Shown: positions 10,963 through 41,286, counted from the stretch's first letter. The stretch: DNA of 64,000 nt from Candidatus Harrisonbacteria bacterium (GCA_023245035.1 JAHFLD010000003.1:55736-119735); one strand, 5' to 3'. Notes: generated by a model from the sequence alone, not told the origin. Translations and numbers: made by a program.

Positions 10963-11032
10963 AATTCATTGCAGAAAATTTTTTCCGATATACAGATTTT
11001 TTTATATATCATCATCGTGATAAGATTTGGCA

Positions 11033-13078: not shown

Positions 13079-14155
13079 ATGCTTTTGCATCTTCGCCGCC
13101 AGGATTGGATGCTGACCGGCGCCATTGTGCTCTTGGCGATGATGAGTTTGGCGGCTATTCGGAGCGCTAACGCCGCCTTGTTTTGGACCCAACTTATTTG
13201 GTTTGTGGTCGGTTTTTTGGCCGTCGTGCTTTTTTCTTTGGTTGATTGGCGGCCGCTGGTTAATTATCGTTGGGTGGTTTTTGGGTTTTACGCCCTGGCA
13301 GTGGTGCTTTTGATTGTGACGCTGATTGCCGCCCCAACGATTCGCGGGACCAAAGGTTGGCTAGTGCTCGGCAGTTTGCGCTTTCAAGTTTCGGAGTTGG
13401 CCAAAATTACCGTTCTGATCGTGTTGGCGCATTTTTTTGCCCGCCAGCATGTTTGGATCGCCAATATTCACACGATTATCCGCTCTTTTATTTACGTGGC
13501 CTTGCCGGCTTTGATTGTTATTAATGAGCCGGATTGGGGGTCGGCTCTGATTTTTTGGGCGCTCTGGGTTGGTTTTTTGCTAATCGCCGGTTTGCGGGTT
13601 CGCCATGTGATTATCGGTTTGGTGGCGCTGGCCGCGCTTTCTTTTGTTGGCTGGAACTTGGTGCTGCAAGATTATCAAAAGGAGCGGATCCTGGGATTTT
13701 GGCAGCCGGCTTATGATCCGCTCGGCGTGAATTACAATGTTATTCAATCCAAGATAGCGATTGGTTCGGCGGGACTTTTGGGGAAAGGCTTCGCCCAGGG
13801 AACTCAGGTGCGCCTGGGTTTTTTGCCCGAAGCATCAACCGATTTTATTTTCGCGGCGTTCACGGAGGAGTGGGGAATCTTGGGCGCGTTATTCTTGCTC
13901 ATGGTTTTTTTCTTTATTATTTTTAGGATTTTGCTCATTGGCTGGCGCGCGCCGGACAATTTTTCTCGCTTTGTGTGCCTGGGGACGGTGCTGGTATTTC
14001 TGGTGGAATTTTTTTTGAACATCGGTTCCAATCTCGGCTTGGTGCCGGTTATCGGCGTAACCTTTCCTCTTTTTAGTTACGGCGGTTCCAGTCTTTTGAC
14101 CAAGATGATGCTCATTGGTATCATCCAGAGCATCGTCCGACGTTCTTCGTTTTAA
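13079..14155 (+). CDS. rodA: SEDS-family peptidoglycan glycosyltransferase (RodA/FtsW)
   Basis: 10 TM helices and the conserved SEDS blocks (SELAKI..VLAHFF; AIGSAGLLGKGF..G; TDFIFAAF; FPLFSYGGSSLL). Confidence 0.85.
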   Translation: MLLHLRRQDWMLTGAIVLLAMMSLAAIRSANAALFWTQLIWFVVGFLAVVLFSLVDWRPLVNYRWVVFGFYALAVVLLIVTLIAAPTIRGTKGWLVLGSLRFQVSELAKITVLIVLAHFFARQHVWIANIHTIIRSFIYVALPALIVINEPDWGSALIFWALWVGFLLIAGLRVRHVIIGLVALAALSFVGWNLVLQDYQKERILGFWQPAYDPLGVNYNVIQSKIAIGSAGLLGKGFAQGTQVRLGFLPEASTDFIFAAFTEEWGILGALFLLMVFFFIIFRILLIGWRAPDNFSRFVCLGTVLVFLVEFFLNIGSNLGLVPVIGVTFPLFSYGGSSLLTKMMLIGIIQSIVRRSSF

Positions 14156-14164: not shown

Positions 14165-15142
14165 ATGCGAGATCGCCGTTTATTTTTTTTGGCCACCGGA
14201 ATCTTTTTATTTTTTGTTTTGATTTTATTGGGTTCGGTTCAAGCAGAAAGCAAGCCCGATTTTTTTTCCGTAAGTTCCGGCGAAAGCTTGCATGAGATTG
14301 CCGGCAGGCTCAAGGAGCAAGATCTGATTCGTTCGCGGCTGATGTTTGAGATTTACGCCCATCTTTCGGGAGCGGCTTCCGGTGTTAAGTCTGGCGGATA
14401 TTTTTTGGACGCCGCATCAACGACGCCGGAGATCGCGCGAATGCTTAGGAATGGACCCGAAACTCGCGAGATTTTGGTTGTGGAAGGAGCTACGCTTGGC
14501 GAAGTTGATAAGATGCTAGCGGGGGCTGGTGTTATCGTCGCTCATTCTTTGCAGGCGTTGTTGCCCGTCGAGCTCATGGGTGAATTTCCATTTATTTCAG
14601 GCGCCACTTCTCTGGAGGGTTTTCTTTTTCCGGATACTTACCGTTTTTTGATGGGAACCTCGCCACGCGAGGTGGCGAGGATTTTTTTGCGTAATTTTGA
14701 ACGGCGGGTCGCCGATCTGATTTCGCTCAAATCGCCAAAACTTTACGCGACAATTATCAAGGCTTCGCTTTTGGAGAAGGAGGCGATTCGGTTTAAAGAC
14801 CGGGCTTTGATCTCGGGAGTAATTGACGCGAGAATCGCGGCGCGGATTCCGTTGCAGATTGACGCGACTGTTGGCTATCTCCGTTGCGCCGGTGTCTTTT
14901 TGGATTGCCCGCCGCTTCGCCGCGCCGATTATTCAGTTAATTCTCCTTTTAATACTTACAAAGTTTTGGGCTTGCCCCCGGCGCCAATCGCTAATCCGGG
15001 ACTGGAAGCTATTCGAGCGGCCTTGCATCCGGAGGGTTCCGGCTTTTGGTACTATCTTTCCGATCCGAAAACAGGCAAGATATTTTTTTCCGAGACGTTT
15101 GACGAGCACAATGAAAAAAGAGCCAAATATCTCGGTCTTTAG
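14165..15142 (+). CDS. mltG: Endolytic murein transglycosylase MltG (YceG family)
   Basis: N-terminal TM anchor plus the YceG-like domain. The gene follows rodA. Confidence 0.75.
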   Translation: MRDRRLFFLATGIFLFFVLILLGSVQAESKPDFFSVSSGESLHEIAGRLKEQDLIRSRLMFEIYAHLSGAASGVKSGGYFLDAASTTPEIARMLRNGPETREILVVEGATLGEVDKMLAGAGVIVAHSLQALLPVELMGEFPFISGATSLEGFLFPDTYRFLMGTSPREVARIFLRNFERRVADLISLKSPKLYATIIKASLLEKEAIRFKDRALISGVIDARIAARIPLQIDATVGYLRCAGVFLDCPPLRRADYSVNSPFNTYKVLGLPPAPIANPGLEAIRAALHPEGSGFWYYLSDPKTGKIFFSETFDEHNEKRAKYLGL

Positions 15143-21400: not shown

Positions 21401-22032
21401 GCGCCTTTAATATAGTCCGGTTTGCTCCCAAGGATGCGACCAAAAAAGCCAAGCCGGTGGAATACCAAGTTCCCCGCAATGTTGAGATTTTTGTTAAAGA
21501 GGGCGAAGAGGTGGCCAAGGGCACGATCTTGTCGGAGGGACACGTTGATCTCAAAGAACTTTTTGAGCTCAAAGGGCGGATTGAAGTGGAGCGTTACGTA
21601 GTGGATGAGGTACAGAGGATTTATTTAAGCGAGGGCGCGAGTATCAGCAACAAGCACATTGAGCTAATTATTCGCCAAATGTTTTCGCGGGTGAAGATTA
21701 AAGAATCCGGCGATACTAATTTTGTTGAGGGAGACGTGGTGGAGAAGTCGGTATTTTTCGAGATTAACCGCCGGATGCGTCGCGCCGAAAAACTTCCGGC
21801 TAAGGGCAAGACGATGTTGCTGGGTATTACCAAGGTTGCCCTGTCTACCGAGAGCTTCTTGTCCGCCGCCTCATTTATTGAAACCGCCAAGGTTTTAATT
21901 AACGCGGCCATCGAAAGCAAGGTTGATAAGCTCCGTGGACTTAAAGAGAATGTGATTATTGGTCGTCTGATTCCGGCTGGCACCGGTTACGGAGTGGATC
22001 GCGATACGGGAGCGCGAAGCCAGGCGGAATAG
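18469..22032 (+). CDS. rpoC: DNA-directed RNA polymerase subunit beta-prime
   Basis: Zn-finger CYCGKYRRSRYKGIVCDKC, catalytic NADFDGDQMAVH, bridge helix and trigger loop blocks. 1187 aa. Confidence 0.95.
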   Translation: MNFNAIKLKIASPDEILQWSHGEVIKPETINYRTQRPEKDGLFSERIFGPTKDWECYCGKYRRSRYKGIVCDKCNVEVTRSAVRRERMGHIMLAAPVAHIWFLKNAPSKISLFLDVSVPKLERVIYYTAYIVTGVNEANKKKIAEELEREFKSRKKNIAEEGVNLETLRSAMSDVEEQLEKLAVGTILTEAEFHSLSLRFANAFEAGTGAEAVRKILAAIDLKSLVQALLKELVIQKDSLREVRILRRLKLAQSMLRNNLRPEWMILSVLPVLPPDLRPMVALDGGRYATSDLNDLYRRVINRNNRLKKLMELKAPEVIVTNEKRMLQEAVDALVDNSARFGTQQMSAQKRPLTSLADQLKGKQGRFRQNLLGKRVDYSGRSVIVIGPELKLGQCGLPKRMALELFKPFVISKIIERGLAHNIRNANRLIEQTTPEVWEILEEVIQNRKVLLNRAPTLHRLGIQAFQPLLIEDLAIRIPPMVCQAFNADFDGDQMAVHLPLSEDAQREASEIMLSSRNLLKPASGDPIATPSQDIVLGCYFLTKIDEAGFGTGRRFSDNNEALLAHENAIVEINALIKIGPARAELETSVGRLIFNAVLPTGFRYVNELMNKKTLSRLVGEIINAYGIEASADVLDNIKKVGFEYATKSGTSWGMADLQTPPEKELLVKGAEVEIGIIRQQFAEGLLTDSERRSRVVAAWKKVVDKLNKEIVPKTLSAHSSVYSIIDSGARGSWSQPGQMMGMKGLVQNPKNEVIELPVRSSFKQGLGVLEYFISTHGSRKGLTDTALKTASAGYLTRRLVDVAQDVIVQENDCKTDKGVEIRRADGLSFGSSFASRLFSRTLLQDVKIERKILARAGEIVDRQMSYDIEKAAVDSVWVRSPMTCETLFGVCSQCYGYDLGTNKKVAIGSAVGIVAAQSIGEPGTQLTMRTFHIGGVAGADITHGLPRIEELFEARPPKGKALLADEDGVVAAIENKGAFNIVRFAPKDATKKAKPVEYQVPRNVEIFVKEGEEVAKGTILSEGHVDLKELFELKGRIEVERYVVDEVQRIYLSEGASISNKHIELIIRQMFSRVKIKESGDTNFVEGDVVEKSVFFEINRRMRRAEKLPAKGKTMLLGITKVALSTESFLSAASFIETAKVLINAAIESKVDKLRGLKENVIIGRLIPAGTGYGVDRDTGARSQAE

Positions 22033-22084
22033 ACTTTTTGAGTTGACTTATCTCAATTGATTCTATAGATTACAGTTATATTTT

Positions 22085-22513
22085 ATGGATGTTATAGATG
22101 ATGTTCGCAAAGAATATGAGTTGGCTTTTATGTTGGCTCTGCCCGAAGAGGAGGCGGAGCTGGAAAAGGCCTTGCTTGAAGCCAAGGTAGAGATTCGCGC
22201 TCGGCGTCCTTTGGCGGCGGTGCGACTGGCGTACCCGATAAAAAAACAAAACACCGCCCATTTTGGCGCTTGGAAGTTTGTGGCTTTGCCGAATTCGGTG
22301 CAGGCAATACGGCTTTCGCTGGGATTGCGTTCAAAAGTAATTCGCTTCTTGATTACGGCGGTTGCTCCGGAGCGGCAGGTTCCGGCACCGGTGAAACCGG
22401 AAGTTAAAGAGGCCGCCACGCCGGCAAAGCCGACGAAAGCTCGAGCGCGAGTTAAGCCTCAAGTTTTGAGCAACGAGGCGCTTGAGGAAAAGCTAGTAGA
22501 AATTTTGAAGTAG
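22085..22513 (+). CDS. rpsF: 30S ribosomal protein S6
   Basis: YELAFML...RLAYPIKK...HFGAW matches the S6 signature. Canonical rpsF-ssb-rpsR order. Confidence 0.8.
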   Translation: MDVIDDVRKEYELAFMLALPEEEAELEKALLEAKVEIRARRPLAAVRLAYPIKKQNTAHFGAWKFVALPNSVQAIRLSLGLRSKVIRFLITAVAPERQVPAPVKPEVKEAATPAKPTKARARVKPQVLSNEALEEKLVEILK

Positions 22514-22517
22514 CTCC

Positions 22518-22979
22518 ATGAATCTCAACAAAGTTTTTATCTTGGGCAGACTGACCGCCGATCCGCAGTTGCGTTCAACGCCAAGCGGCCAGCAAGTTGG
22601 ATCTTTTGCCGTGGCGACTAACCGCGTGTGGAATGACAAGAGTGGCCAGAAGCAGGCGGCAACCGAGTATCACAGCATTGTGGTGTGGGGAAGACAGGCG
22701 GAGGTTGCCTCCAAGTTCTTGCGAAAAGGCGGACTGGTGCTGGTTGAGGGCAGGATGCAGACCCGTTCTTGGGATGACGCTCAGGGCCAGAAGCGCAAGA
22801 CCACAGAGATTGTCGCCGAGCGGATTCAGTTGGGACCCCGACCAACCGGCTCTCAAGGCAATTTTGGCGCTGAAACTCCGACTGCCGATCCATTTGCTTC
22901 GCCGACCGATGACAAGAAAGAAGATATTCCAATTATTAGCGTTGACGAGGAGACCTCGAAGGATGACCTACCGTTTTAA
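22518..22979 (+). CDS. ssb: Single-stranded DNA-binding protein
   Basis: OB-fold blocks (VFILGRLTADPQLR; HSIVVWGRQAE; LVLVEGR) and the acidic C-terminal tip DDLPF. Confidence 0.9.
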   Translation: MNLNKVFILGRLTADPQLRSTPSGQQVGSFAVATNRVWNDKSGQKQAATEYHSIVVWGRQAEVASKFLRKGGLVLVEGRMQTRSWDDAQGQKRKTTEIVAERIQLGPRPTGSQGNFGAETPTADPFASPTDDKKEDIPIISVDEETSKDDLPF

Positions 22980-22984
22980 CTTCT

Positions 22985-23191
22985 ATGACTATGCACCAAT
23001 GTTATTTCTGTTCGCAAAATATAAACACGATTGATTACAAGGAGGCCGAGTTGTTGCGCAAGTTTATTTCTTCGCAGGCTAAAATTATTGATCGCCGTTA
23101 TACTAATACTTGCGCTAAGCACCAGCGAGCGCTGGCTCAGGCGATTAAGCGGTCGCGTTTTTTGGGTCTTTTGCCGTACGTGCGGCGATAG
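22985..23191 (+). CDS. rpsR: 30S ribosomal protein S18
   Basis: IDYKEAELLRKFIS...KHQRALAQAIKRSRFLGLLPY matches S18. Confidence 0.9.
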   Translation: MTMHQCYFCSQNINTIDYKEAELLRKFISSQAKIIDRRYTNTCAKHQRALAQAIKRSRFLGLLPYVRR

Positions 23192-23210
23192 TTTTTAGAC
23201 GTTGTTTGTC

Positions 23211-23747
23211 ATGCCATCCGATGTCGTTTTTTCAGGTTTACTTCGAACCATCGTTAGCGGAAACGTTGTTTTTGAATCGCTGACGGTTTTTTTTGCCGCT
23301 TATTTACCGTACGTTACCATTTTGGCGGCGGTTTTTCTTTTGTTTCGGGAGACGCTTTGGCGGCGGCGGCTTTACAACATATTGCTGGTTGGGCTTTCGG
23401 GTATCTTGGCCTACGGCGTGGTGACCCCGATTTTTCGTTTCTTTTTACCCCGTCCTCGCCCATTTGTCGCGCTTGATTTTACCCCGCTTGTCGCGGTAGA
23501 TATTACTCCGTCTTTTCCCTCCGGACACGCTATTTTCTTTTTTGCCATAGCGACCGCTTTTTATTTTTTGCGCCCGCGCGCCGGTTTTTGGTTTTTGATA
23601 GTTGCTGGAATTATCAGCGTGGCTCGGGTGGCGGCCGGAATTCATTGGACATTTGATATTATCGGCGGCGCTTTATTGGGAATCTTGTGCGGTTATGCCG
23701 CTAAACTTATTTTGCCTCATTTGAACTTTCCTAAGAGCGAGTCTTAA
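23211..23747 (+). CDS. PAP2-family phosphatase (undecaprenyl-diphosphatase-like)
   Basis: PAP2 motifs PSGH (..PSFPSGHAIFFF) and SRxxxxxHxxxD (SVARVAAGIHWTFDI) in a 6-TM protein. ATG at 23211 is preferred over the TTG at 23202. Confidence 0.7.
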   Translation: MPSDVVFSGLLRTIVSGNVVFESLTVFFAAYLPYVTILAAVFLLFRETLWRRRLYNILLVGLSGILAYGVVTPIFRFFLPRPRPFVALDFTPLVAVDITPSFPSGHAIFFFAIATAFYFLRPRAGFWFLIVAGIISVARVAAGIHWTFDIIGGALLGILCGYAAKLILPHLNFPKSES

Positions 23748-23753
23748 AAATAT

Positions 23754-25532
23754 ATGAGCGCTAGATCGGCTGATCAAATTCGTACAGCTTTTCTGGAATT
23801 TTTTAAAGCGCGGGCTCACGCGGTGGTGCCGTCTTCGTCTTTGATACCCGACGATCCGTCGGTGCTTTTGACCACCGCCGGCATGCAACAGTTTAAAAAA
23901 TATTACACCGGCGAAGCGGATCCGGTGCGGGACTTTGGGAGTCACAACACCACTTCGGCGCAAAAATCTTTTCGGACTTCGGATATTGACGAGGTGGGGG
24001 ATGAGCGACACCTGACTTTTTTTGAAATGCTGGGAAATTTTTCGTTCGGCTATAAGGCGGGTGAACGGCGTTTGCCAAAGGACGGATATTTTAAGCGCGA
24101 GGCGATTGCTTACGCGCATGAGTTTCTCACCAAGACTCTCGGACTTCATATTTCTTACGTGACGGTTTTTCAGGGAATGCCCGGCGTGCCCAAAGACGAA
24201 GAGTCTATAGCCATCTGGAGAGCGCTTGGCGTGACTGATATTCGCGAGGAGTTGTGGGATGTTTTTTGGGGGCCAACGGGATCGGCCGGTCCCTGCGGGC
24301 CAACGACCGAGATCTATTGCAAAAACGGCGCCGGAGACGATATTGAAGTTTGGAACATAGTTTTCAATCAGTTCTTTTTCTCCGGATCGCGCGAGGAGTT
24401 GCAGGCCGGAAGTTCCGGTAAGATTTTGGAGCCTCTTAAAACACCCGGTGTGGATACGGGCATGGGTTTGGAGCGCTTGGCGATGATCGCGCAGGGAACA
24501 AAAACTATTTTTGAGACGGATTTATTTAAGTCAATAATTTCTTTGCTGCCCCAAGGGATGGACGAGCGGATTGGGCGTATTTTTGCGGATCACTTGAGGG
24601 CCGTGGCGTTTTTGATTGGCGACGGGGTGCGACCTTCCAACAGAGATGCTGGTTATGTTTTGCGGAGACTCTTACGGCGGCTGATGGTCTATGGAGTTGG
24701 ATGGGAGATTGAACCGCTTTTCCGCGCTGTGGTAGCGCAATACAAGCAAGCTTATCCAGAACTTTCATTGGAAATTATCAACGAGGTTTATCGTTTGGAG
24801 AGGGATAAGTTTTCGAAAACTTTGTCGCAGGGACTTCGTGAACTCGATCGTTTGCAAAAAATAAATGCCGCCTCGGCTTTTAAACTCTACGAGAGTTTTG
24901 GTTTGCCCTACGAGATTATTAAGGAAAAAGCAGGGGCTCGCGGCGAAGAGCTTCGGCGAGATCTTTTTGATGCCGAGTTTAAGAAGCACCAAGAAATTTC
25001 GCGGGCAGGCAGTCAAAAAAAATTCGGCGGGCACGGACTTTTGCTTGATACCGGCGAACTAAAGGCGGGGAATGAGGAGGAGCTAAAAAAAGTAACGCGA
25101 TTGCACACGGCAACGCACATGCTTCAACAGGCTTTGCGCGTCGTTTTGGGGAACGAGGTGCGTCAAGCGGGTTCGGATATCACCGCGGAGCGAACGCGTT
25201 TTGATTTTACCTTTTCGCGCAAGCTGACTTTGGAGGAGGTGAAAAAAGTGGAGGAGCTGGTTAATCAAAAGATCGGCCAGGCCTTACTGATGCAAAAGGT
25301 GATTTTGCCGAAGGCGGAGGCGGAAAAAACCGGAGCGCTTTATTCCTCTAAGGAAAAGTATCCCGATCCGGTAAATGTTTATTTTTTGGGTGAATCTTTG
25401 GGTACGGCGTGGAGCAAGGAGTTTTGCGGGGGGCCGCATGTTGCAAACAGCCGCGAAATTGGGCGGTTCAGGATTTTAAAGGAAGAGGGCGTGGCCGCTG
25501 GCGTTCGCCGGATTCGAGCCACGGTCGGTTGA
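23754..25532 (+). CDS. alaS: Alanyl-tRNA synthetase, short form with catalytic and editing domains but no C-Ala domain
   Basis: Class II AlaRS motifs (FKARAH; GNFSFGYK; GPCGPTTEIY; GVDTGMGLERL), editing-domain HTATHMLQ and CGGPHV. Only 592 aa. Confidence 0.9.
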   Translation: MSARSADQIRTAFLEFFKARAHAVVPSSSLIPDDPSVLLTTAGMQQFKKYYTGEADPVRDFGSHNTTSAQKSFRTSDIDEVGDERHLTFFEMLGNFSFGYKAGERRLPKDGYFKREAIAYAHEFLTKTLGLHISYVTVFQGMPGVPKDEESIAIWRALGVTDIREELWDVFWGPTGSAGPCGPTTEIYCKNGAGDDIEVWNIVFNQFFFSGSREELQAGSSGKILEPLKTPGVDTGMGLERLAMIAQGTKTIFETDLFKSIISLLPQGMDERIGRIFADHLRAVAFLIGDGVRPSNRDAGYVLRRLLRRLMVYGVGWEIEPLFRAVVAQYKQAYPELSLEIINEVYRLERDKFSKTLSQGLRELDRLQKINAASAFKLYESFGLPYEIIKEKAGARGEELRRDLFDAEFKKHQEISRAGSQKKFGGHGLLLDTGELKAGNEEELKKVTRLHTATHMLQQALRVVLGNEVRQAGSDITAERTRFDFTFSRKLTLEEVKKVEELVNQKIGQALLMQKVILPKAEAEKTGALYSSKEKYPDPVNVYFLGESLGTAWSKEFCGGPHVANSREIGRFRILKEEGVAAGVRRIRATVG

Positions 25533-25642
25533 CAATTATAGTATTTAGCAGATATAATTTGGCCAGTTCTTTGAGAGATGAGCCTTAGGTTCCGCAGTGT
25601 TTGCGGAATAAGGGGCGGGTTAATCAAAGACGGGAGAGTCTT

Positions 25643-26254
25643 ATGTCTCGGCCAAAGAGTCAGTTTTTGTCATCGCTGGGAGTTCTTTTTGAACTCTTCA
25701 AGGCGGTGACTGATAGGGTGTTGGAGAAGGGCGGTAGTGACGAGGACATTGCTCGGATTGGGAAAGATCCCGAACTCGCGGAGGGGATTGCGAAGATGAT
25801 TCTCGCCTCCTGCGCCGAGACGAAGCCTTATAAAATCGCTTTCATCGTTGAATCATCCCGGACTCTCAAAAAGATGATTGTGGATGGCAGATACGACGGT
25901 GGTAGCTCAGGCATCATCGCGGAAGAGTTTCCGATCGAAGCTACGGGAAAGCAGGAGGTTGTACTCGAGCTTCTTCACTTTAACCGTCGCATTTCCACCG
26001 AAGATGCACTTATTGAGATCGAGCGGCGTGGCCTGGAGCCTGCTAAGTTTATACACTTGCTTGCTTTTGGTAAGCACCATCCCGAGCTTCAGCTTCAGTT
26101 TTCGATCGTTGCTCTGGGTTCTGTGTTGCCACCACTCGGTGGTTTTCGCGTACCTTGTCTTAACGCGTGTTCCGGTCGACGCTGCTTGATTCTGGAATGG
26201 GGAGATTGCGTCTGGGACGAGAATTACCGTTTTCTGGTTGTGCACAAGTCCTAG
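25643..26254 (+). CDS. Hypothetical protein
   Basis: ATG at 25643 with a GGGAGAG Shine-Dalgarno-like sequence upstream. No motif recognised. Confidence 0.4.
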   Translation: MSRPKSQFLSSLGVLFELFKAVTDRVLEKGGSDEDIARIGKDPELAEGIAKMILASCAETKPYKIAFIVESSRTLKKMIVDGRYDGGSSGIIAEEFPIEATGKQEVVLELLHFNRRISTEDALIEIERRGLEPAKFIHLLAFGKHHPELQLQFSIVALGSVLPPLGGFRVPCLNACSGRRCLILEWGDCVWDENYRFLVVHKS

Positions 26255-26282
26255 GATTGGACCCTTGGTAGCTTAGTTCTTT

Positions 26283-26313
26283 TCGCCCGACATTACGCCG
26301 GGCGATTTTTTTA
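26283..26313 (+). terminator. Rho-independent terminator
   Basis: tcgcccg-acattacgc-cgggcga followed by TTTTTTTATTTT. Confidence 0.6.
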
Positions 26314-26355
26314 TTTTCACTAGGTTTGGGTTGGCGAAGAGTTTATACTTGTTGA

Positions 26356-27567
26356 GTGAGATTTTGGCCTTCAGTTCTACCTTTAGTTTTTGGCGCTAAT
26401 CACGGAGAGCGGTTTTTTGTAATTTGCTTTGAAGCCTCGGGCGTGCGCCTGTATCGCCTGGAGGCGAGGCGAGAAACAAAAACACTCAAGGTGCTTAGCG
26501 CTCTATATACGCCGGTTGCTTCACCCACATATTCCGTTTTGGTTGCGGCGGCGCGACAGATGAGTCGCCGGTTTTTGGATTTTAAAACTTCGCGGGTGTT
26601 GGTGCTTACCGGGGCGCGTTTGGCGACGGTTATTTTGGGAGGCGCGAGCATGGCCCGGGAAGATGCCGAACGCGAAATTGACGAGACGGAGTTGGAGAAC
26701 TCTTTTGTGCAGGCGCTCTGGCAGGCTTTTGACCGCGAGCGAGCCTCGGCGGGCATTAAGATGCGAGTCCATGACTTGGAGGTGGCGGTGGCGGATGTGA
26801 GGTTGCTACGCACCGTGCTTGATGGGCACGCCGTTCCTAATCCAATCGGTTTTTCGGCCAAAGAAATTTCTTTTTCTTTTGAAATTGTTTTGAGCCCCAA
26901 GTATTTTTTGCGCCAGCTTTATGAGTTTATTTCCGAGGAGCAATTGGTTTTTATCTCCGATCGGGGGGCGGTTTACGCGCAGTTTCTTACGCGATCCACG
27001 GAGAAGCTACCGGAGTTTTCTTTATTGTATGCCGACCTGCGACACGGCGATTTATATGCTGGCGGTCTTCAAGGTTTGCGTTTTTTGGGCGAGGTGGCGT
27101 GGGGGAGGGAGGCGATCGGGCAATCTTTGCAAAACGATTTTTGTTTGCCGCTGTCTTCGGTTGAGGCGTTTTATCGCCGTTTGGTGGCGGCTGATTTTGG
27201 GCCCGGGGTTTTGCGCGGCGCTAAAAAATCTTTTTCGGGGGCGCTCGCAAAGTGCTTGGCGTCGCTTTACGAACGCGATAGCGGTATTTTTTCCCGTCCC
27301 TTGTTTTTGGCCTCGTCGTTTGATCTTCCCCGCTGGTTTTTTGAGAAGTCGGTGCGTTTAGCCCCCTGGCCGCCGTTGGACATCAAGTTGGCGGAGGTTG
27401 CCGGGTTGCCACTTGCTCCCAAAATCATTCTTGCCTCCGGAGTTAGCGCTCCTTCCCGCGCTCTAGCCGATCTTTTGGTTTTTCATGCCGCTTTTTCTTT
27501 GACGCCGTCTCGTGATAAAATTGACAGAGTGGCAAGGAGGCACGCTCGCTGGCTTCTAGCTTCATAA
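26356..27567 (+). CDS. Hypothetical protein, possible actin-fold ATPase (FtsA/PilM-like)
   Basis: 403 aa. An N-terminal FFVICFEASGVRLYRL beta-hairpin resembles the phosphate-1 motif of actin-fold proteins, and a C-terminal LASGVSA segment resembles the adenosine motif. Starts at a GTG. The stop lies 4 nt before the next gene, suggesting an operon. Confidence 0.45.
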   Translation: MRFWPSVLPLVFGANHGERFFVICFEASGVRLYRLEARRETKTLKVLSALYTPVASPTYSVLVAAARQMSRRFLDFKTSRVLVLTGARLATVILGGASMAREDAEREIDETELENSFVQALWQAFDRERASAGIKMRVHDLEVAVADVRLLRTVLDGHAVPNPIGFSAKEISFSFEIVLSPKYFLRQLYEFISEEQLVFISDRGAVYAQFLTRSTEKLPEFSLLYADLRHGDLYAGGLQGLRFLGEVAWGREAIGQSLQNDFCLPLSSVEAFYRRLVAADFGPGVLRGAKKSFSGALAKCLASLYERDSGIFSRPLFLASSFDLPRWFFEKSVRLAPWPPLDIKLAEVAGLPLAPKIILASGVSAPSRALADLLVFHAAFSLTPSRDKIDRVARRHARWLLAS

Positions 27568-27570
27568 CCC

Positions 27571-29124
27571 ATGGCTTTGATTAAAAGAATTTTTGCCCGA
27601 CCGGAAGAAGACTCCGCCGCTCTGATTGAGCGCTTGGCGGAAATTGAAGCGCGGCAAGTTGTGATAAGCATTCCGCGCTCTTCGGTCTTACTTGAATCTC
27701 GTTCTTCGTTTACGCTCTTGAGGCGCGAAGCTCTCGGACTCAAAAAAACAATTTTGATTGAATCGGTTGATTCGGAGGTTCTTACCGCCGCTCGTGGCGC
27801 CCGTCTTAGGGCCCGCAATCCATTTGGAGAGAGAAGAGGCAAGCGTTTGGCCGATATTGTTGCCGCCACCGCTTCGCGAGCCGCCGAGGTTTCGGCGCGG
27901 GATTTTTTTGAAGACGAAGAAGAAGAGGAAGTCTCAAGACCAGCGCGGCGCGGCGGATCTGTCAACGCTAAAATTCCAACTCGCCGCTTCTGGGCTAGAT
28001 TGGTTTTTTGGACAACCGGAATTTTGGCGCTTCTTGGCGCGATTTATTTGGTAATGGTTGTTCTGCCTAAGGCGGAGATTAAGATTACGGCGCGACGAGT
28101 GCCGTGGAAGTTTGACGGCTCGGTTACGGTGGATAAAAATTTGTCGCGTCTGACCGCGGAGACTGTTTCCGTTCCCGGGCAGCTTTTTGTTCAAAAGAAA
28201 AATTTTGATTCGGCGTATCCGGCGAGCGGCAAAAAAGAAGTTTCCCGCGCCGCGAGCGGGCAGATTACTATTTATAATACCTACTCATCCGAGCCCCAGG
28301 CTTTGGTTCTGCGAACTCGTTTTCGGGCGCCGGATGGAAAAATTTTCCGTTTAGCCAAGAGCTTGGTAGTTCCCGGGGCGAAGGTGGTGAATGGCAAGAT
28401 CGTGCCTTCAAGCATTGAGGCGGAAGTTGTGGCCGATAAAACCGGAGCGGATTACAACATCGGCCCGATAGAAAAATTCGTCATTCCGGGTTTTGAGGGG
28501 ACGCCGAAGTTTGCCGCTTTTTACGCGGAGTCCAAAACCGCGATGAGTGGCGGAGTGGTGGGGGTGGTTCCGTTTCCTACTTCGGCCGATATTGAAAATG
28601 CCAAGACGGCGGCGCTGACGACTATTCGCGATGCTCTGACCGCGGCCTTGCTGACTCAAGCCCCCAAGGATTTGAAGGTGGTTAGCGGGGCGACTGATTT
28701 TAAGCTGATTACCCAAAGAATTAGGGATACGGTCGATGCCGACGGGCGTTTTTCGATTTTTACCGAGGCTCAAATGACGATGATGGCTTTTCGTGAAAAA
28801 GATCTGGTGACAATGTTGCAAGCCAAGGCCGAAAAAGAGGCCGGTCAGGGACTTTTTTTGAAGCATTATTCTCTGGAGTACGGCACGCCGAGGTTTGTTG
28901 TTTCTGCTGGACGGCTGGAGCTCTTGGTGGTTTATCGCGCGGAGTTGGTTCGGGATGTGGATCTGGCGGCTTTGCGGCGGCTGGTTCTGGGGAAGTCGGA
29001 GACCGAGCTTAAGGTGGCAGTGCTGGCTTTGCCGGGGTTAGAGAGCGCCCAAATTTCGCTTTGGCCCTTTTGGGTGAGAAGCGTTCCGAACCGCGAGGAG
29101 CGGGTGGCGATTAATATCCAGTAG
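27571..29124 (+). CDS. Hypothetical bitopic membrane protein with an acidic stretch (EDEEEEE) before a single TM helix and a large extracytoplasmic domain
   Basis: 517 aa: a cytoplasmic N-terminal region of about 150 aa, a TM helix (LVFWTTGILALLGAIYLVMVV), then a beta-rich C-terminal domain. Confidence 0.5.
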   Translation: MALIKRIFARPEEDSAALIERLAEIEARQVVISIPRSSVLLESRSSFTLLRREALGLKKTILIESVDSEVLTAARGARLRARNPFGERRGKRLADIVAATASRAAEVSARDFFEDEEEEEVSRPARRGGSVNAKIPTRRFWARLVFWTTGILALLGAIYLVMVVLPKAEIKITARRVPWKFDGSVTVDKNLSRLTAETVSVPGQLFVQKKNFDSAYPASGKKEVSRAASGQITIYNTYSSEPQALVLRTRFRAPDGKIFRLAKSLVVPGAKVVNGKIVPSSIEAEVVADKTGADYNIGPIEKFVIPGFEGTPKFAAFYAESKTAMSGGVVGVVPFPTSADIENAKTAALTTIRDALTAALLTQAPKDLKVVSGATDFKLITQRIRDTVDADGRFSIFTEAQMTMMAFREKDLVTMLQAKAEKEAGQGLFLKHYSLEYGTPRFVVSAGRLELLVVYRAELVRDVDLAALRRLVLGKSETELKVAVLALPGLESAQISLWPFWVRSVPNREERVAINIQ

Positions 29125-29196
29125 GTTCCATAAATCGCTGTTTTTTCGGGTTGGAGTTGACTTCGGTTGGGCTTTTTTGTTAATATCCCTACTTGC

Positions 29197-29409
29197 ATGC
29201 TTGATCGGAATATTCCCGCTCGCGAGGGGCGTGTCGAAGAATCGCTTCCCGGAACTATGTTTCGGGTGAAACTTTATGATGGCAATGTCGTCTTGGCCCA
29301 TCTTGCGGGCAAGATGCGTCTCCATTATATTAAGATACTTCCCGGAGATCGCGTGCTTTTGGAATTGAGTCCCGATGGCGAGCGTGGCAGAATTATCCGC
29401 CGATTATAA
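29197..29409 (+). CDS. infA: Translation initiation factor IF-1
   Basis: S1-like OB signature ([32 protein letters not shown]...[21 protein letters not shown]). ATG at 29197; the listed ORF starts at a TTG 30 nt upstream. Confidence 0.9.
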
Positions 29410-29422
29410 TTAGGTTATTTTT

Positions 29423-29536
29423 ATGAAGGTTCGTTCATCAGTCAAACCAATTTGCAACAAGTGCAAGACGGTTCGCCGCCGCCGCCGGGTTTTGGTTATC
29501 TGTACCATTCCGAAGCACAAGCAACGGCAGGGATAA
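29423..29536 (+). CDS. rpmJ: 50S ribosomal protein L36
   Basis: Translates to [37 protein letters not shown] (37 aa), the L36 zinc-ribbon. Below the 60-aa ORF cutoff, so not in the supplied track. Sits between infA and rpsM as in most bacteria. Confidence 0.85.
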
Positions 29537-29584
29537 AAATTAAATTTTGCCGGAGGACGATCAGCGATTAACCAATCAAACACC

Positions 29585-29968
29585 ATGAGACTTCTAGGTA
29601 TCAACATCCCTGATAACAAGCGCATTATTATCGCGTTGGCTTATCTTTATGGAATTGGGCCTACGAGGGCGGCGGAGATTTTGACGGCGACCAAAATAAA
29701 TCCGGATAAACGCGCCAGCACGCTCGACTTAAACGAGGTGAACAAGATCAAGGAGTATGTAGAAAAGCATTTCAAAATTGAGGGTGAATTGCGGCAAATC
29801 ATTAAACAGAACATCGCTTTGCTTAAGGATCTGCAAACTTATCGCGGGGCGCGCCACGCCCGACGTTTGCCGGTTCGCGGTCAGAGAACTAAGACTAATT
29901 CTCGCACCGTTCGCGGCAATGTTCGCAAGACGGCCGGAAGCGGCAAGCGAAAGGTGGCATTGAAGTAA
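29585..29968 (+). CDS. rpsM: 30S ribosomal protein S13
   Basis: RLLGINIP...YGIGPTRA...YRGARHARRLPVRGQRTKTN matches S13. Confidence 0.95.
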   Translation: MRLLGINIPDNKRIIIALAYLYGIGPTRAAEILTATKINPDKRASTLDLNEVNKIKEYVEKHFKIEGELRQIIKQNIALLKDLQTYRGARHARRLPVRGQRTKTNSRTVRGNVRKTAGSGKRKVALK

Positions 29969-29997
29969 AATCGCCTTTATTGTAGGATTACAAACCC

Positions 29998-30450
29998 ATG
30001 GGAAAGAAAAAAGTTGCCAGTCAAACATCGGATGAGGCCATCAAAGAGAAGGATGCTTTGGATGTGGCTTTTCAAAAAACTGCCGGAAAGTCGGCCAGCA
30101 ACCGCCACGAACGCGGCAAGGTTTTTATTAATTGCTCTTATAACAACACTTTGATTTCCATTACCGATGACAAGGGCGGTGTGGTGGCTTGGAGCTCCGC
30201 CGGCGCCTTGGGTTTTAACGGCCCTAAAAAGGCGACCCCATTCGCGGCTTCAAAGGTGGTGGCGGCGCTAGCCGAAAAGGTTAAAAAGGCAGGTCCTTTT
30301 AACGTGGAAGTTCTGGTTAACGGCATCGGCGGGGGACGGGATTCGGCGGTTAGATCGCTCGCCGCGCGCGGTTTTAATATTCTTTCCATCCGCGATGTGA
30401 CGCCGATTCCGCACAACGGTCCGCGCCCGCCAAAAGTTCGGCGAGTGTAG
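29998..30450 (+). CDS. rpsK: 30S ribosomal protein S11
   Basis: NNTLISITD..GGVVAWSSAGALGFNG..KKATPFAA...GIGGGRDSAVRSLAARGFNI matches S11. Confidence 0.95.
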   Translation: MGKKKVASQTSDEAIKEKDALDVAFQKTAGKSASNRHERGKVFINCSYNNTLISITDDKGGVVAWSSAGALGFNGPKKATPFAASKVVAALAEKVKKAGPFNVEVLVNGIGGGRDSAVRSLAARGFNILSIRDVTPIPHNGPRPPKVRRV

Positions 30451-30471
30451 TCAAGAATTTACAACACTCAA

Positions 30472-31095
30472 ATGTTTAATACTCAAGAAAAAAAAGAACG
30501 CGCTCTCGGAGTTAAGCTTTTTTTAAAGGCTTCGCGTTGCGCTTCGCCAAAATGCGCCACGGTTCGCCGTCCGACTCGGCCGGGAATGCACGGCGCTGCT
30601 CGTCGGCGCGCCCCGTCGGAGTATGGGCGCCAACTTCTGGAGAAGCAAAAATTCCAGTTTGCCTACGGCTTGAGGGAGGCTCAAGTGCGTTCGCTTTTCA
30701 AAAAAGCGCTTAAAGATCCGGCGGCTACCGGAATGACTTTTGCCAACTTATTGGAGGCTCGTTTGGATAATGTTTTGTATCGCCTGGGATTTACCGCCTC
30801 TCGCTCGGTGGCTCGCCAAGTTGTCGGCCATGGCCATATTTTTGTGAAGGGCCGACGGGTTTCCATTTCTTCCTATTCGGTAAGAGTTGGAGACGTTATC
30901 AGTCTGCGCCCGCAGTCCAAGGATCACCCGGTGTTCAAAGAGATAACCGAGCGGCTTAAGAACTATGAACCGCCGGCGTGGCTGAAGCTCAACAAGGATG
31001 CCGTGTCCGGATCGGTGGTTTCCGCTCCTCGGGTTGATGAACCGCCGTTTGACGTCGGGCTCGTAGTCGATTACTATTCAAAAATAGTTAAATAG
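30472..31095 (+). CDS. rpsD: 30S ribosomal protein S4
   Basis: N-terminal zinc-ribbon-like CASPKC and the S4 RNA-binding domain (LEARLDNVLYRLGF..SRSVARQVVGHGHIFVKGRRV). Confidence 0.95.
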   Translation: MFNTQEKKERALGVKLFLKASRCASPKCATVRRPTRPGMHGAARRRAPSEYGRQLLEKQKFQFAYGLREAQVRSLFKKALKDPAATGMTFANLLEARLDNVLYRLGFTASRSVARQVVGHGHIFVKGRRVSISSYSVRVGDVISLRPQSKDHPVFKEITERLKNYEPPAWLKLNKDAVSGSVVSAPRVDEPPFDVGLVVDYYSKIVK

Positions 31096-33079: not shown

Positions 33080-33529
33080 ATGCTCACTCGAATGAAGCGC
33101 TTCTCATTGTTTATTCTCTCTCGCCATTTTTTTGTAGCGGCACTTTTGGGGCTGTTGGGATTTCACCTGATCGCGCTTTCGTTTCATTGGTATTGGATTT
33201 ATCGATTTGCCTTGATTGATGTTATTCCCCATTTTTTGGGAGGTTTTGTGGTGGCTAACTTTTTCTATCTGTTTTTTATGAGCTCGCCATCGCCTCGGAT
33301 TTTCGCCCCAAGTATTTTGATCCGAGGCCTGCTTATTTTTCTTTTTGCCTTGGGAGTCGGTGTCTTTTGGGAATTTTTTGAATTTTTGGTGGATCGTTGC
33401 TTGGTTAGCTTGCCGTCATATCGCAACCAGCTGGGACTTACGGATACCATGAAGGATCTCGCGGTTGATGCTTGGGGCAGTTTGGTGTTTATCGGCCTTT
33501 ATATTTTGGCTTGGAGGGGACGAGAATAA
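33080..33529 (+). CDS. Hypothetical small membrane protein
   Basis: ATG at 33080 gives a protein of about 149 aa with 4 hydrophobic helices. Confidence 0.4.
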   Translation: MLTRMKRFSLFILSRHFFVAALLGLLGFHLIALSFHWYWIYRFALIDVIPHFLGGFVVANFFYLFFMSSPSPRIFAPSILIRGLLIFLFALGVGVFWEFFEFLVDRCLVSLPSYRNQLGLTDTMKDLAVDAWGSLVFIGLYILAWRGRE

Positions 33530-33582
33530 GGCGGCTATTTTCTTTGCCAGAGTTTTTGCCTATACTGGGAACACCTTTGATT

Positions 33583-34590
33583 ATGTTTACCCGCAAAATT
33601 GGTATTGATTTAGGTACTGCCAATACGATTGTTTTTGTGCCCGGCAAGGGATTTATCATCAACGAGCCGACAATTGTGGCTTTGAGTTTGCCGGAAAACA
33701 GCGTGCTAGCCGTTGGCCAGGAGGCCAAGGAAATGATTGGTCGAACACCGGACGATATTTCCGCCTATCGCCCCCTAAAGGATGGAGTAATCGCCGATTA
33801 TTACATTACCAAGGCGATGCTCAAGTATTTTATCAGTCGCGCGGTTGGCAGGTTTAATATTTTTCGGCCGGAGGTGGTGATTTCGGTTCCGGCTGGTATC
33901 ACGCCCACCGAGCGGCGAGCGGTGGTCAACGCCGCCCGCGAGGCTGGAGCCAAAGAGGCCTTTGTCGTCAAAGAGCCGATTTTGGCGGCGCTGGGTGCCG
34001 GCATTCCAATTAATGCCCATGTTGGCAATATGATTATCAACATCGGTGGAGGCACGGCGGAGGTGGCCGTGGTTTCGCTTGGCGGTATTGTTTCCTGGTC
34101 CAGTTTGCGGGTGGCCGGAAACAAGTTTGATCAAGCGATTATAGATTACGTGAAGCGCAAACATTCGCTCGCGATTGGAGAGCAGACAGCGGAAACCGTG
34201 AAGATAGAAGTTGGTTCGGCGCTGGCTACCAAGGAGCAGTTGCAGTTTGAACTTCGCGGACGAGATCTGGTTTCCGGTCTGCCACGCGATATAAGCATCA
34301 AGTCCAACGAAATCGCCGAAGCGCTCACGCCGTTTTTACTGGAAATCGCCTCGTCGGTGCAAAATGTTTTTAACTCAACGCCGCCGGAATTGGTGGCCGA
34401 CATCATGGAGAAGGGAATAATTCTTTCCGGCGGCGGCAGTCAGCTTCGGCACCTGGATGAATTTTTTCATAGGCTTACCGGAGTGCCGACTTATCTGGCT
34501 GAGGATCCTCTTTTTTGTGTGGCCAAGGGCGCCGGTTTGATTTTGAATCATTTGGATGTTTATAAGCGGACCTTGCTTACCAAGAGATAA
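33583..34590 (+). CDS. mreB: Rod shape-determining protein MreB (paralog 1)
   Basis: Actin-fold motifs IGIDLGTANT, DGVIADY, NIGGGTAEVAV, ILSGGGSQL. ATG at 33583. Confidence 0.9.
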   Translation: MFTRKIGIDLGTANTIVFVPGKGFIINEPTIVALSLPENSVLAVGQEAKEMIGRTPDDISAYRPLKDGVIADYYITKAMLKYFISRAVGRFNIFRPEVVISVPAGITPTERRAVVNAAREAGAKEAFVVKEPILAALGAGIPINAHVGNMIINIGGGTAEVAVVSLGGIVSWSSLRVAGNKFDQAIIDYVKRKHSLAIGEQTAETVKIEVGSALATKEQLQFELRGRDLVSGLPRDISIKSNEIAEALTPFLLEIASSVQNVFNSTPPELVADIMEKGIILSGGGSQLRHLDEFFHRLTGVPTYLAEDPLFCVAKGAGLILNHLDVYKRTLLTKR

Positions 34591-39465: not shown

Positions 39466-40512
39466 ATGTCGCGATTCGGACTTATCAGAAAAAATATCGG
39501 AATTGATCTTGGCACCAGCAATGTTCTGGTTTATTTGGATAAGCGGGGAATTGTAATCAATGAGCCGTCGGTCGTGGCGCTTAACACCAAGACCAATCAG
39601 GTGGTGGCAGTGGGCACCGAGGCGAGGGATATGCTGGGGAGGACGCCGAGCCACATTACCGTGGCGCGTCCCTTGGTTAATGGCGTCATTGCCGATTTTG
39701 AAGTTACGCAGGAAATATTGCGGCATCTTTTGCGGCGAGTAAGCAAGGATAGTATTTTTGTGAACTATCGCCGGGCGGTGGTCGGGGTGCCGAGTAATTT
39801 AACGGAGGTGGAACGCAAATCGGTAGAGGACGCGGTTATCGGCGCCGGAGTCTTTCAGGCTTTGTTGATTGAAGAGCCGCTGGCGGCCGCCTTGGGCGCT
39901 CGGTTGCCAATCAACGAGCCGACGGCCAACATGGTGGTGGATATCGGCGGGGGCACCACCGAGGTGGCGATTATCTCCATGGGCGGTATCGTAACCGCCA
40001 AGAGTCTCAAAATAGCCGGAGATAAGTTTAACGACGATATTATTCGTTTTGTGCGCGATGAGTTTAAGATCGCGATTGGTGAGCCGACCGCGGAAGAGGT
40101 CAAGATCGCGGTTGGTTCGGTTTTGCCGGTTGAAGAGCGTTTGGAAATTTCGGTTCGCGGACGGGATTTGACGACCGGTTTGCCGCGCGAGATTTTAATC
40201 AAAGACCCACACGTGCGCGCCGCCATCGGCAAGTCTTTTAAAGTTATTGTGGACGCGATTCGGGAGGTAATTGAGTCCGCGCCGCCGGAGTTGGCCGGCG
40301 ATATTCTAAAGCGGGGCGTTTATCTTTGCGGCGGCGGCAGTTTGTTGCGCGGAGTTGCCGAATATATTTCCAAAGATTTGATGGTGATGGCCACCGTGGT
40401 GGATGATCCGCTGACTTGCGTGGTGCGGGGAACCGGAGTAGCGATTGAGCACTTTGCCAAGTATCGTCCAGTCTTGCAGGATCCTTCGGAGCCACGTACG
40501 ATAAGATTGTAA
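39466..40512 (+). CDS. mreB: Rod shape-determining protein MreB (paralog 2, in the mreBCD-PBP2 cluster)
   Basis: IGIDLGTSNV, NGVIADF, DIGGGTTEVAI, YLCGGGSLL. About 50% identical to paralog 1 by eye. Confidence 0.9.
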   Translation: MSRFGLIRKNIGIDLGTSNVLVYLDKRGIVINEPSVVALNTKTNQVVAVGTEARDMLGRTPSHITVARPLVNGVIADFEVTQEILRHLLRRVSKDSIFVNYRRAVVGVPSNLTEVERKSVEDAVIGAGVFQALLIEEPLAAALGARLPINEPTANMVVDIGGGTTEVAIISMGGIVTAKSLKIAGDKFNDDIIRFVRDEFKIAIGEPTAEEVKIAVGSVLPVEERLEISVRGRDLTTGLPREILIKDPHVRAAIGKSFKVIVDAIREVIESAPPELAGDILKRGVYLCGGGSLLRGVAEYISKDLMVMATVVDDPLTCVVRGTGVAIEHFAKYRPVLQDPSEPRTIRL

Positions 40513-40569: not shown

Positions 40570-41286
40570 GTGGTACGAAAATTTTTTCAACTTACATTAT
40601 TGATTCTTTTGGCTTACGCTGCTTTTTTTGGCGTGGCTCGGCTGATGCCGCGGAGCGGTTTGGGCGCGTTGATTTCCGACGCGGCACTGTTGCCGGTGGC
40701 CGTAGTCAAAAACTTTTCCACGACTTCTTCGATCTATCGCGATCTTTTGGACTTGCTGCGGGAGAATCAGAGTTTGCGGGCTCAACTGGCGGCGAATACT
40801 TTGACGACGCCCCTCCTATTGCCGTCGGATCGCAGGGTTATCCTGGCCAGAGTTTATTCGGCTTACCCGTTTAACGATCGCGGACTTTTGAGCATTAATG
40901 TCGGGAGTTTAGAGGGGGTGCGGGAAAAGACGCCGGTGACGATTGACGGCACCTTGTTGTTTGGGGTGGTGGAGCAGGTTTTTAAGGACTATAGCCTAGT
41001 GAGGACGATGTACGATCCGGAGTGGAAGTCGGCAGTCAAACTTGGTTCTCGACGCGTGGATGCCTTGCTTAAGGGCGGACGCGAGCCACGGCTTACTTTG
41101 ATAGTTAAGGGCAAGCCGGTCGCGGAGGGCGACTCAATTTATTCCGCTAGCCGCGATTTTCCCTATGGCTTGGCGGTTGGAGAGGTTGGCAAGCTGCAAT
41201 CCGGTCAGGCCGATGCTTTTGATGAAGCTCCGGTAGTTTTCCCGTACGAACTTTCCGACATTAACGAAGTTTATCTCTTGCTATGA
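40570..41286 (+). CDS. mreC: Rod shape-determining protein MreC
   Basis: N-terminal TM, coiled-coil (LLRENQSLRAQL), then two beta-barrel-like repeats. Immediately downstream of mreB. Confidence 0.75.
   Translation: MVRKFFQLTLLILLAYAAFFGVARLMPRSGLGALISDAALLPVAVVKNFSTTSSIYRDLLDLLRENQSLRAQLAANTLTTPLLLPSDRRVILARVYSAYPFNDRGLLSINVGSLEGVREKTPVTIDGTLLFGVVEQVFKDYSLVRTMYDPEWKSAVKLGSRRVDALLKGGREPRLTLIVKGKPVAEGDSIYSASRDFPYGLAVGEVGKLQSGQADAFDEAPVVFPYELSDINEVYLLL

Follow-up and report, generated by a model that had tools for sequence, protein, structure and literature searches.

In the closest described systems, a cytoplasmic actin-like protein is paired with a partner that crosses the membrane once. In its 1A/1C groove PilM binds the conserved N-terminal cytoplasmic peptide of PilN, GspL/EpsL of type II secretion being the fused equivalent, and FtsA has such a partner in FtsN. 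Among actin-fold proteins, FtsA and PilM are set apart from MreB and ParM by the SHS2/1C insert, and GspL shows that such an actin-like domain need not bind nucleotide. Here we describe a pair of genes in 64,000 nucleotides (nt) of DNA from a Candidatus Harrisonbacteria bacterium (GCA_023245035.1, JAHFLD010000003.1:55736-119735; this whole stretch is called the window, and positions are counted from its first letter). Three open reading frames (ORFs), genes 1, 2 and 3, lie there between alaS and infA (Table 1). Genes 2 and 3 form a two-gene module that is conserved in Parcubacteria, within the Candidate Phyla Radiation (CPR). The model of gene 2 indicates a very divergent actin fold of the FtsA/PilM class, and gene 3 encodes a bitopic protein whose extracytoplasmic domain resembles phage baseplate wedge proteins. 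No description of the pair was found in the literature searched.

Conservation and linkage of genes 2 and 3

Gene 3 has more than 150 homologs, all annotated as hypothetical, and a scan of one genome per species detected relatives in 451 genomes, of which the best 80 loci were examined. Gene 2 lies directly upstream of gene 3 in 54 of the 75 loci with enough upstream sequence. The two genes are within 50 nt of each other in 42 of these 54, mostly with a gap of 0-25 nt or an overlap, and this tightness suggests that they are translationally coupled. A metagenome scan that started from gene 2 gave 60 loci, and gene 3 is directly downstream in each of the 50 that left room for it. Hence gene 2 was never seen without gene 3 (50/50 informative loci), and 21 of 75 loci have gene 3 alone, as one would expect were gene 2 an accessory of gene 3.

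The surroundings of the pair are also stable. Gene 3 is followed by infA and rpsM in about 70 of the 80 loci, alaS is usually upstream, and gene order is conserved from alaS to rpsI and mreB; other genes between alaS and the pair vary from locus to locus, with the pair itself staying together. Its fixed place beside infA-rpsM-rpsK-rpsD-rpoA suggests a constitutive, housekeeping-level use in the cell envelope.

An earlier note on this DNA, made from the sequence, had placed three genes between alaS and infA; all three ORFs are present at the positions it gave. All are genuine genes and not chance ORFs, because each has homologs (284 cluster representatives for gene 2, >150 homologs for gene 3 and 14 for gene 1). 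The note's description of an uncharacterized system holds for genes 2 and 3, a conserved pair for which no strong match to a characterized family was found, a strong match being one of the outcomes that it had named as refuting. Its suggestion of a narrowly lineage-specific module does not hold, given that the named closest relatives of gene 3 are spread over Harrison-, Jorgensen-, Colwell-, Lipton- and Wolfebacteria (Parcubacteria group). Nor do the three genes make up one operon: as described below, gene 1 is a separate unit.

Gene 2: a predicted actin fold of the FtsA/PilM class

The AlphaFold2 (AF2) model of gene 2, based on an alignment of 58 sequences, has a predicted local distance difference test score (pLDDT) of 88.9 and a predicted template modelling score (pTM) of 0.88. 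Its 29 best Foldseek matches in the Protein Data Bank (PDB) are all FtsA (from T. maritima, S. aureus, E. coli, Vibrio and Xenorhabdus) or PilM (from P. aeruginosa, T. thermophilus and M. xanthus), with E-values from 2.6e-16 to 3e-11. The next matches, to EutJ, sugar kinases, MreB and ParM, have E >=7e-7 and are more than four orders of magnitude weaker. The PilM match has an E-value of 7e-15, and template modelling (TM) scores are 0.59-0.63 for FtsA versus 0.49-0.57 for PilM. The model also contains an SHS2/1C-type subdomain, with its elements in the order strand (91-100), helix (110-136), strand (143-155) and strand (170-181). One Harrisonbacteria homolog bears the UniRef name 'SHS2 domain-containing protein'. 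On this confident model gene 2 is a very divergent FtsA/PilM-class actin fold with an SHS2/1C subdomain. The earlier note had suspected a clearly divergent actin fold and named structure prediction as one check; an actin fold is what was predicted.

Sequence similarity is far weaker. The family profile matches T. maritima FtsA (PDB sequence) marginally, at an E-value of 0.0065, and hhalign comparison of the family with E. coli FtsA gave an E-value of 3.5e-4 and a probability of 37%, in the same register as the T. maritima match. Neither gene 2 nor any of 59 family members matches Pfam or NCBIfam, their FtsA and SHS2_FTSA models included, and the 59 members have no match to Pfam PilM_2 (PF11104). 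A full HMMER scan nevertheless gathered 284 cluster representatives at E<=1e-3, mostly of about 400 amino acids (aa), whereas a word-indexed search returned only 2 matches. The latter search is nearly empty because gene 2 evolves fast: it is about 25% identical to its Harrisonbacteria homologs, versus about 42% for gene 3.

Public gene calls for gene 2 from the same organism conflict, giving either 403 aa or 335 aa from M69. The 403-aa form, whose GTG is the first codon past an in-frame stop, is the correct one, because the alignments of homologs begin at residue ~4-17 and because residues 18-53 form three beta-strands modelled with pLDDT >90. The NCBI/ENA start at M69 removes these first three strands of the actin fold (26356-26559).

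Loss of the nucleotide-binding motifs

The phosphate-1, phosphate-2 and adenosine motifs are missing throughout the family (58 members, aligned in the register of T. maritima and E. coli FtsA). At the phosphate-1 position the consensus reads xVVEIL, without the Gly-Thr/Ser loop (reference DxG); at the phosphate-2 position it reads FLLAxLFxxxT instead of DxGGGT; and the adenosine position has VYLxSFFDLP in place of the Gly-Gly turn, with no Gly-rich loop. The segments of the middle protein that the earlier note had likened to phosphate-1 and adenosine motifs are therefore not such motifs in any member. Because the loss is family-wide, gene 2 is most likely a nucleotide-independent pseudo-ATPase scaffold and not an ATP-driven filament, as far as can be judged from sequence.

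One clade goes further. Its gene 2 is shortened to about 300 aa and lacks the first 70-80 residues, that is, beta1-beta3 and the first helix of subdomain 1A (loci L033, L042-L044, L051, L055, L060, L065, L066, L077, L080 and L085, gene 2 of L060 being cut by the contig end); alaS ends directly upstream. Therefore even the core of the nucleotide-binding half is dispensable.

The most conserved motif of the family lies at the other end of the protein, in a basic amphipathic C-terminal helix with the pattern A-[KR]-R-[RH]-A-R-W-L. W399 is invariant, and R395, R398 and L400 are each conserved in >90% of members. The hydrophobic moment and net charge of the helix are 0.74 and +4, versus 0.57 and +3 for the membrane-targeting sequence of E. 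coli FtsA. We regard it as a candidate membrane-targeting or partner-binding helix.

Gene 3: a bitopic protein with a baseplate-like ectodomain

The AF2 model of gene 3 (66 sequences) has a pLDDT of 88.9 and comprises a compact cytoplasmic domain (the N-domain below), a disordered linker, one transmembrane helix and a large extracytoplasmic domain. Arg/Lys residues on the N side of the helix and the lack of a signal peptide indicate an N-in bitopic protein, in agreement with the layout proposed in the earlier note. At the start of the linker, where AF2 confidence drops sharply, there is a short linear motif (the DIV motif below) in which D95 and I96 hardly vary across the family. The linker itself measures 40-106 aa across the family and is of mixed charge (~17% D/E, 21% K/R). 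The EDEEEEE run to which attention had been drawn lies within it; it is not conserved in the family and was rejected as a functional feature for that reason.

The ectodomain is modelled as a beta-hairpin stalk, a GlxA-type beta-barrel, a long helix and a C-terminal alpha/beta domain. Three independent methods found it similar to the baseplate-J/gp47/gp6 wedge fold and the GlxA barrel. Global superposition on baseplate wedge proteins is poor (TM ~0.17-0.24), and what is confidently shared is individual domains only. Pfam Baseplate_J (PF04865) gave weak matches in 3 of 66 family members (best E 0.008) and none for the window protein, and a sub-threshold match of gene 3 to the GlxA barrel (PF21110) was the sole family-library match when the three proteins were compared with Pfam, NCBIfam, PHROGs and PADLOC. 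No POTRA (FtsQ), SPOR or ferredoxin-like (PilN) fold was found in the ectodomain. The FtsQ/PilN-type partner envisaged in the earlier note is thus right as to topology and wrong as to fold.

A possible transmembrane tether

We consider the chances even that genes 2 and 3 encode a transmembrane tether in the style of PilM-PilN or FtsA-FtsN, with gene 2 as a nucleotide-independent scaffold and gene 3 as a surface module. Gene 2 would bind gene 3 through the latter's cytoplasmic tail, chiefly its N-domain, much as PilM holds PilN, FtsA holds FtsN or the two halves are fused in GspL. The basic amphipathic helix at the C-terminus of gene 2 may in addition keep it at the membrane, and the scaffold could then position or cluster the gene 3 module of the cell surface from inside.

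What is shown is the folds, topology and genetic coupling of the two; the docking we infer from the order of the genes, from joint loss and correlated rates, and by analogy. The presence of a conserved linear motif within the disordered tail of gene 3, and of a helix in gene 2 that is basic, amphipathic and similar to the FtsA membrane-targeting sequence, is consistent with it. In a clade of 15 loci gene 2 is absent, alaS abuts gene 3 and the N-domain of gene 3 is missing too (L038-L041, L047, L052, L053, L057, L061, L067, L068, L070, L076, L081 and L088). This clade is Wolfebacteria-like and monophyletic in a neighbour-joining tree of ectodomains; it keeps the DIV motif, now at the very start of the protein (KKIKMVDIV) and ahead of a long charged linker. 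Among 35 complete loci, pairwise distances of gene 2 correlate with those of the N-domain (r = 0.886), of the ectodomain (0.834) and of RpsM (0.513). With the ectodomain controlled for, gene 2 and the N-domain keep a partial correlation of 0.63, versus 0.39 the other way round. These distance correlations are suggestive only.

Several observations weigh against such a tether, or against parts of it. Gene 2 and the N-domain were lost together in a single event, in one clade; because the 15 joint absences are this one clade, the presence/absence table (52/15/6/2) was not taken as independent evidence. At least four further lineages without gene 2 retain the N-domain (L019, L032/L037, L054, L058 and L087). 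The DIV motif persists without gene 2, and the partner of the motif may be another protein. Shared ancestry inflates mirror-tree correlations, and the N-domain is a short one. In the model, the C-terminal helix of gene 2 packs on the body of the protein at moderate confidence (pLDDT ~70-80), which makes its role at the membrane uncertain. Finally, the loss of ATP binding by gene 2 is read from motifs and nothing else.

Alternative explanations

One alternative is that gene 2 is an extremely diverged true FtsA and gene 3 a divisome protein in the role of FtsQ/DivIB or FtsN, so that the pair would act in cell division. FtsA supplies the very best fold matches of gene 2, ahead of PilM in TM score, and its only sequence-level matches; the C-terminal helix is like the FtsA membrane-targeting sequence; gene 3, as FtsN, is bitopic with a conserved N-terminal cytoplasmic peptide; and no canonical ftsA or ftsZ was found in the 64-kb window, in the 10 kb past its left end or in loci L001-L088. 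We nevertheless hold this to be unlikely. The ATP motifs are absent, gene 2 is truncated or lost in some lineages, which would be surprising were FtsA essential, no linkage of it to ftsZ or to genes of the division and cell wall (dcw) cluster was seen, and the ectodomain of gene 3 has neither a POTRA nor a SPOR fold. Moreover, Patescibacteria, Paceibacteria included, are reported to express annotated ftsA and ftsZ genes (PMC9938205), so a canonical FtsA probably coexists with gene 2, to judge from Patescibacteria at large. It is improbable, and a shade less credible than a diverged FtsA, that genes 2 and 3 are independent and owe their adjacency to a gene order frozen in a housekeeping region. 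The whole region from alaS to rpsI/mreB is indeed conserved in order, 21 of 75 loci have kept gene 3 but have no gene 2, and gene 2 evolves much faster (25% versus 42% identity). Frozen order, however, does not fit with gene 3 being directly downstream in all 50 informative gene 2 loci, with gaps so small or overlapping that translational coupling is suggested, or with the pair remaining intact as the genes between it and alaS come and go; that gene 2 disappeared together with the N-domain, and that its distances track those of this domain, likewise speaks for a connection.

A variant platform of the type IV pilus or type II secretion kind, in which gene 2 is PilM-like and gene 3 replaces PilN/PilO or the membrane half of GspL, is very unlikely. 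The constant neighbours are alaS and infA-rpsM, and no pilB, pilC, pilT, pilO or pilin gene stands beside the pair in the window or in four gene-annotated relatives; gene 2 has no Pfam PilM_2 match and the ectodomain is baseplate-J-like where PilN and PilO are ferredoxin-like. This has to be set against PilM being among the best matches of gene 2 (E 7e-15), an order of genes (actin-like, then bitopic with an N-terminal cytoplasmic motif) that mirrors pilM-pilN, the precedent of GspL for a nucleotide-free actin-like domain and the occurrence of a pilin-like gene elsewhere in the window (53025-53903). Similarity of the ectodomain to wedge proteins of phages, extracellular contractile injection systems (eCIS) and bacteriocins raises the further question of whether gene 3, together with gene 2, could be a remnant of a prophage or contractile injection system, or an anti-phage defence gene. 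This is essentially excluded: there is no PHROG or PADLOC match, no gene 3 relative among 2.9 million viral contigs (IMG/VR) and no sheath, tube, gp25-like or other phage gene nearby; the chromosomal position beside infA is stable in most of the 80 species-level loci, and gene 3 has a membrane anchor and a cytoplasmic domain that baseplate proteins lack. Gene 3 itself is not of recognizable phage origin, to judge from PHROGs, viral contigs, neighbours and PADLOC.

Gene coordinates and neighbouring genes

Positions of the features are collected in Table 1. The spacer between genes 2 and 3 is 3 nt (CCC) and not 4 nt as had been reported, and the 101-nt gap between genes 1 and 2 contains a terminator-like hairpin. 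Between this hairpin and the GTG of gene 2 (26314-26355) no convincing promoter was found; a TATACT lies 6 nt 5' of the GTG, without a good -35 element. Transcripts of genes 2 and 3 may arise by read-through or be leaderless. Rfam gave no match in 22000-31000.

Table 1. Features of the locus between alaS and infA and of selected genes downstream (positions in the window; residue numbers refer to the encoded protein)
Feature	Position	Strand	Remarks
alaS	23754-25532		upstream of the three genes
Sigma-70-type promoter match (predicted)	25529-25558	+	TTGACA-18-TATAAT, 12/12 consensus positions
Gene 1	25643-26254	+	203 aa from ATG; ORF opens at TTG 25601
Intrinsic-terminator-like hairpin	26283-26313	+	UCGCCCG...CGGGCGA then U7; GC-rich, between genes 1 and 2
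Gene 2, predicted FtsA/PilM-class actin-fold protein	26356-27567	+	403 aa, GTG start; cytoplasmic, degenerate nucleotide-binding motifs
Gene 2, SHS2/1C-type subdomain	26617-26898	+	residues ~88-181, strand-helix-strand-strand insert
Gene 2, C-terminal basic amphipathic helix	27517-27561	+	residues 388-402, KIDRVARRHARWLLA
Gene 3	27571-29124	+	517 aa
Gene 3, cytoplasmic N-terminal alpha/beta domain	27571-27825	+	residues 1-85, compact
Gene 3, disordered charged linker	27826-27984	+	residues 86-138; pLDDT <50 at 88-138
Gene 3, linear motif KRLADIV	27841-27861	+	residues 91-97; family pattern [KR]-x-[FMV]-x-D-I-[VI]
Gene 3, EDEEEEE run	27910-27930	+	residues 114-120
Gene 3, single transmembrane helix	27985-28065	+	residues ~139-165; AF2 helix 139-164, hydrophobic window from 139
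Gene 3, extracytoplasmic domain	28066-29121	+	residues 166-517, ~350 aa
Gene 3, GlxA-type beta-barrel	28279-28578	+	residues ~237-336, most conserved part
infA	29167/29197-29409		downstream of gene 3
MreB paralog 1	33472-34590		downstream of gene 3
MreB paralog 2	39466-40512		followed by MreC and PBP2
MreC	40570-41286		
PBP2	41745-43667		

The two MreB paralogs that the earlier note had connected with the three genes are present downstream, and their link to the module is one of position. A RodA/FtsW-family gene and YceG lie upstream of rpoB (13079-14155 and 14165-15142). With MreB in two copies, MreC, PBP2, RodA, YceG and MurB, the window holds most of a rod-shape/peptidoglycan elongation set of a CPR genome; the tie of this set to genes 2 and 3 is proximity only. 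In the relatives L007 and L008 an MreB gene also comes after rpsI.

Some further features of the window were recorded. The 23S rRNA gene (6585-10452) measures 3868 nt against a model of 2925 nt and hence contains insertions, one of which is a group I intron (9936-10136). A 5S rRNA gene follows downstream (10848-10963), and there is no 16S gene in the window (unlinked rRNA genes). The pilin-like gene mentioned above is on the minus strand, encodes a 292-aa protein with a type IV pilin N-terminal methylation motif (PF07963, E 2.6e-5) and adjoins a sugar transferase and a glycosyltransferase.

Gene 1: a separate neighbour

Gene 1 is a separate transcription unit and an unrelated neighbour that does not belong to the module, because it has a promoter and a terminator of its own (both predicted from sequence), is absent from this locus in relatives and belongs to a family of diversity-generating retroelement (DGR) targets. 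The 65 nt around the hairpin (26262-26326) fold at -17.2 kcal/mol with a z-score of -2.5, the minimum free energy structure adding an outer 6-bp stem. At this locus gene 1 is confined to loci of its own organism (L001), and the related loci L002-L088 all lack it; there is no homolog of it among the 80 species-level loci. The closest relative, L003, whose gene 3 is 76% identical, lacks gene 1 at the same place, and other relatives have different small genes there.

The gene 1 protein is soluble. It has 14 homologs, and the two that were examined stand in unrelated contexts. One of them, P0274 from a Buchananbacteria contig (L092), is 43% identical and ends in a 144-nt variable repeat (VR), a second copy of which adjoins bAvd and an RVT_1 reverse transcriptase. 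Between the VR (L092 positions 4528-4671) and this second copy, the template repeat (TR; 5006-5149), all 26 of 26 mismatches fall at TR adenines and at codon positions 1 or 2. This bias and the adjoining bAvd and reverse transcriptase identify the family as a DGR variable protein in L092. The L092 homolog is like known DGR variable proteins in possessing VR, TR, bAvd and reverse transcriptase. Gene 1 of the window differs from them, as no template repeat was found for it in the 64 kb and no reverse transcriptase among the window ORFs scanned.

Significance

The CPR accounts for a large share of bacterial diversity, its cell biology is almost unknown and most of its conserved genes are without a role. 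Hundreds of Parcubacteria species share genes 2 and 3, in a fixed place beside infA and the ribosomal-protein/rpoA genes, and the two genes join two folds that are well understood elsewhere, the FtsA/PilM-type actin and the baseplate wedge, in a combination that is undescribed. They offer a testable handle on how the cytoplasm is connected to the surface in tiny, probably host-dependent cells, and gene 2 would be one more naturally occurring actin-fold protein to have abandoned the binding of nucleotide. Annotation stands to gain as well: gene 2 is publicly truncated to 335 of 403 aa, and source-named homologs are all hypothetical except the one UniRef entry cited above.

In its boldest form the interpretation is of an undescribed transmembrane apparatus of Parcubacteria in which an ATP-free actin-fold protein organizes a surface array of domesticated baseplate-wedge-like modules. 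We find this doubtful, if worth stating. If true, it would be a new envelope structure, serving division, surface-layer organization or host attachment, with no counterpart in model bacteria, and for the first time a baseplate-J-type fold would be found serving as a housekeeping membrane protein.

Comparison with known systems

Gene 2 was compared with FtsA structures including those of T. maritima (4A2A/1E4F) and E. coli (7Q6D). Besides its best structural matches and its only sequence-level matches, it shares with FtsA the actin fold with SHS2/1C in place of subdomain 1B and the basic amphipathic C-terminal helix; the conserved cytoplasmic peptide of bitopic gene 3 recalls FtsN. The differences are that gene 2 lacks all three nucleotide-binding motifs, falls below every Pfam and NCBIfam threshold, is unlinked to ftsZ or the dcw cluster and is truncated or lost in several lineages.

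PilM-PilN (2YCH and 5EOU) resembles the pair in gene order, an actin-like gene with a 1C domain directly upstream of a gene for an N-in bitopic protein, and in the conserved peptide of the membrane partner's tail, here [KR]x[FMV]xDI[VI]. Gene 3 departs from PilN in carrying a further folded domain in the cytoplasm and a long charged linker, and from PilN, PilO and GspL alike in an outer domain that is baseplate-J/GlxA-barrel-like instead of ferredoxin-like; there are also no pilus or secretion genes near the pair. With FtsQ/DivIB, as with PilN, the likeness of gene 3 is confined to N-in bitopic topology.

The ectodomain of gene 3 shares its wedge fold, a barrel with flanking domains, with baseplate J, gp47 of Mu, gp6 of T4, Afp11 and Pvc11, with confidence only in individual domains, and its barrel resembles that of GlxA (PF21110; 4UNM). 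Unlike those baseplate proteins, gene 3 is membrane-anchored with a cytoplasmic domain and is encoded on the chromosome beside housekeeping genes in most of the 80 loci, with no baseplate, sheath or tube neighbours and no relative in viral contigs. The general design of an actin-like protein with a bitopic partner is already known; what is new is that nucleotide motifs are lost family-wide, that the surface domain is baseplate-wedge-like, that there is an additional cytoplasmic domain and that the genes stand in a housekeeping context in the CPR.

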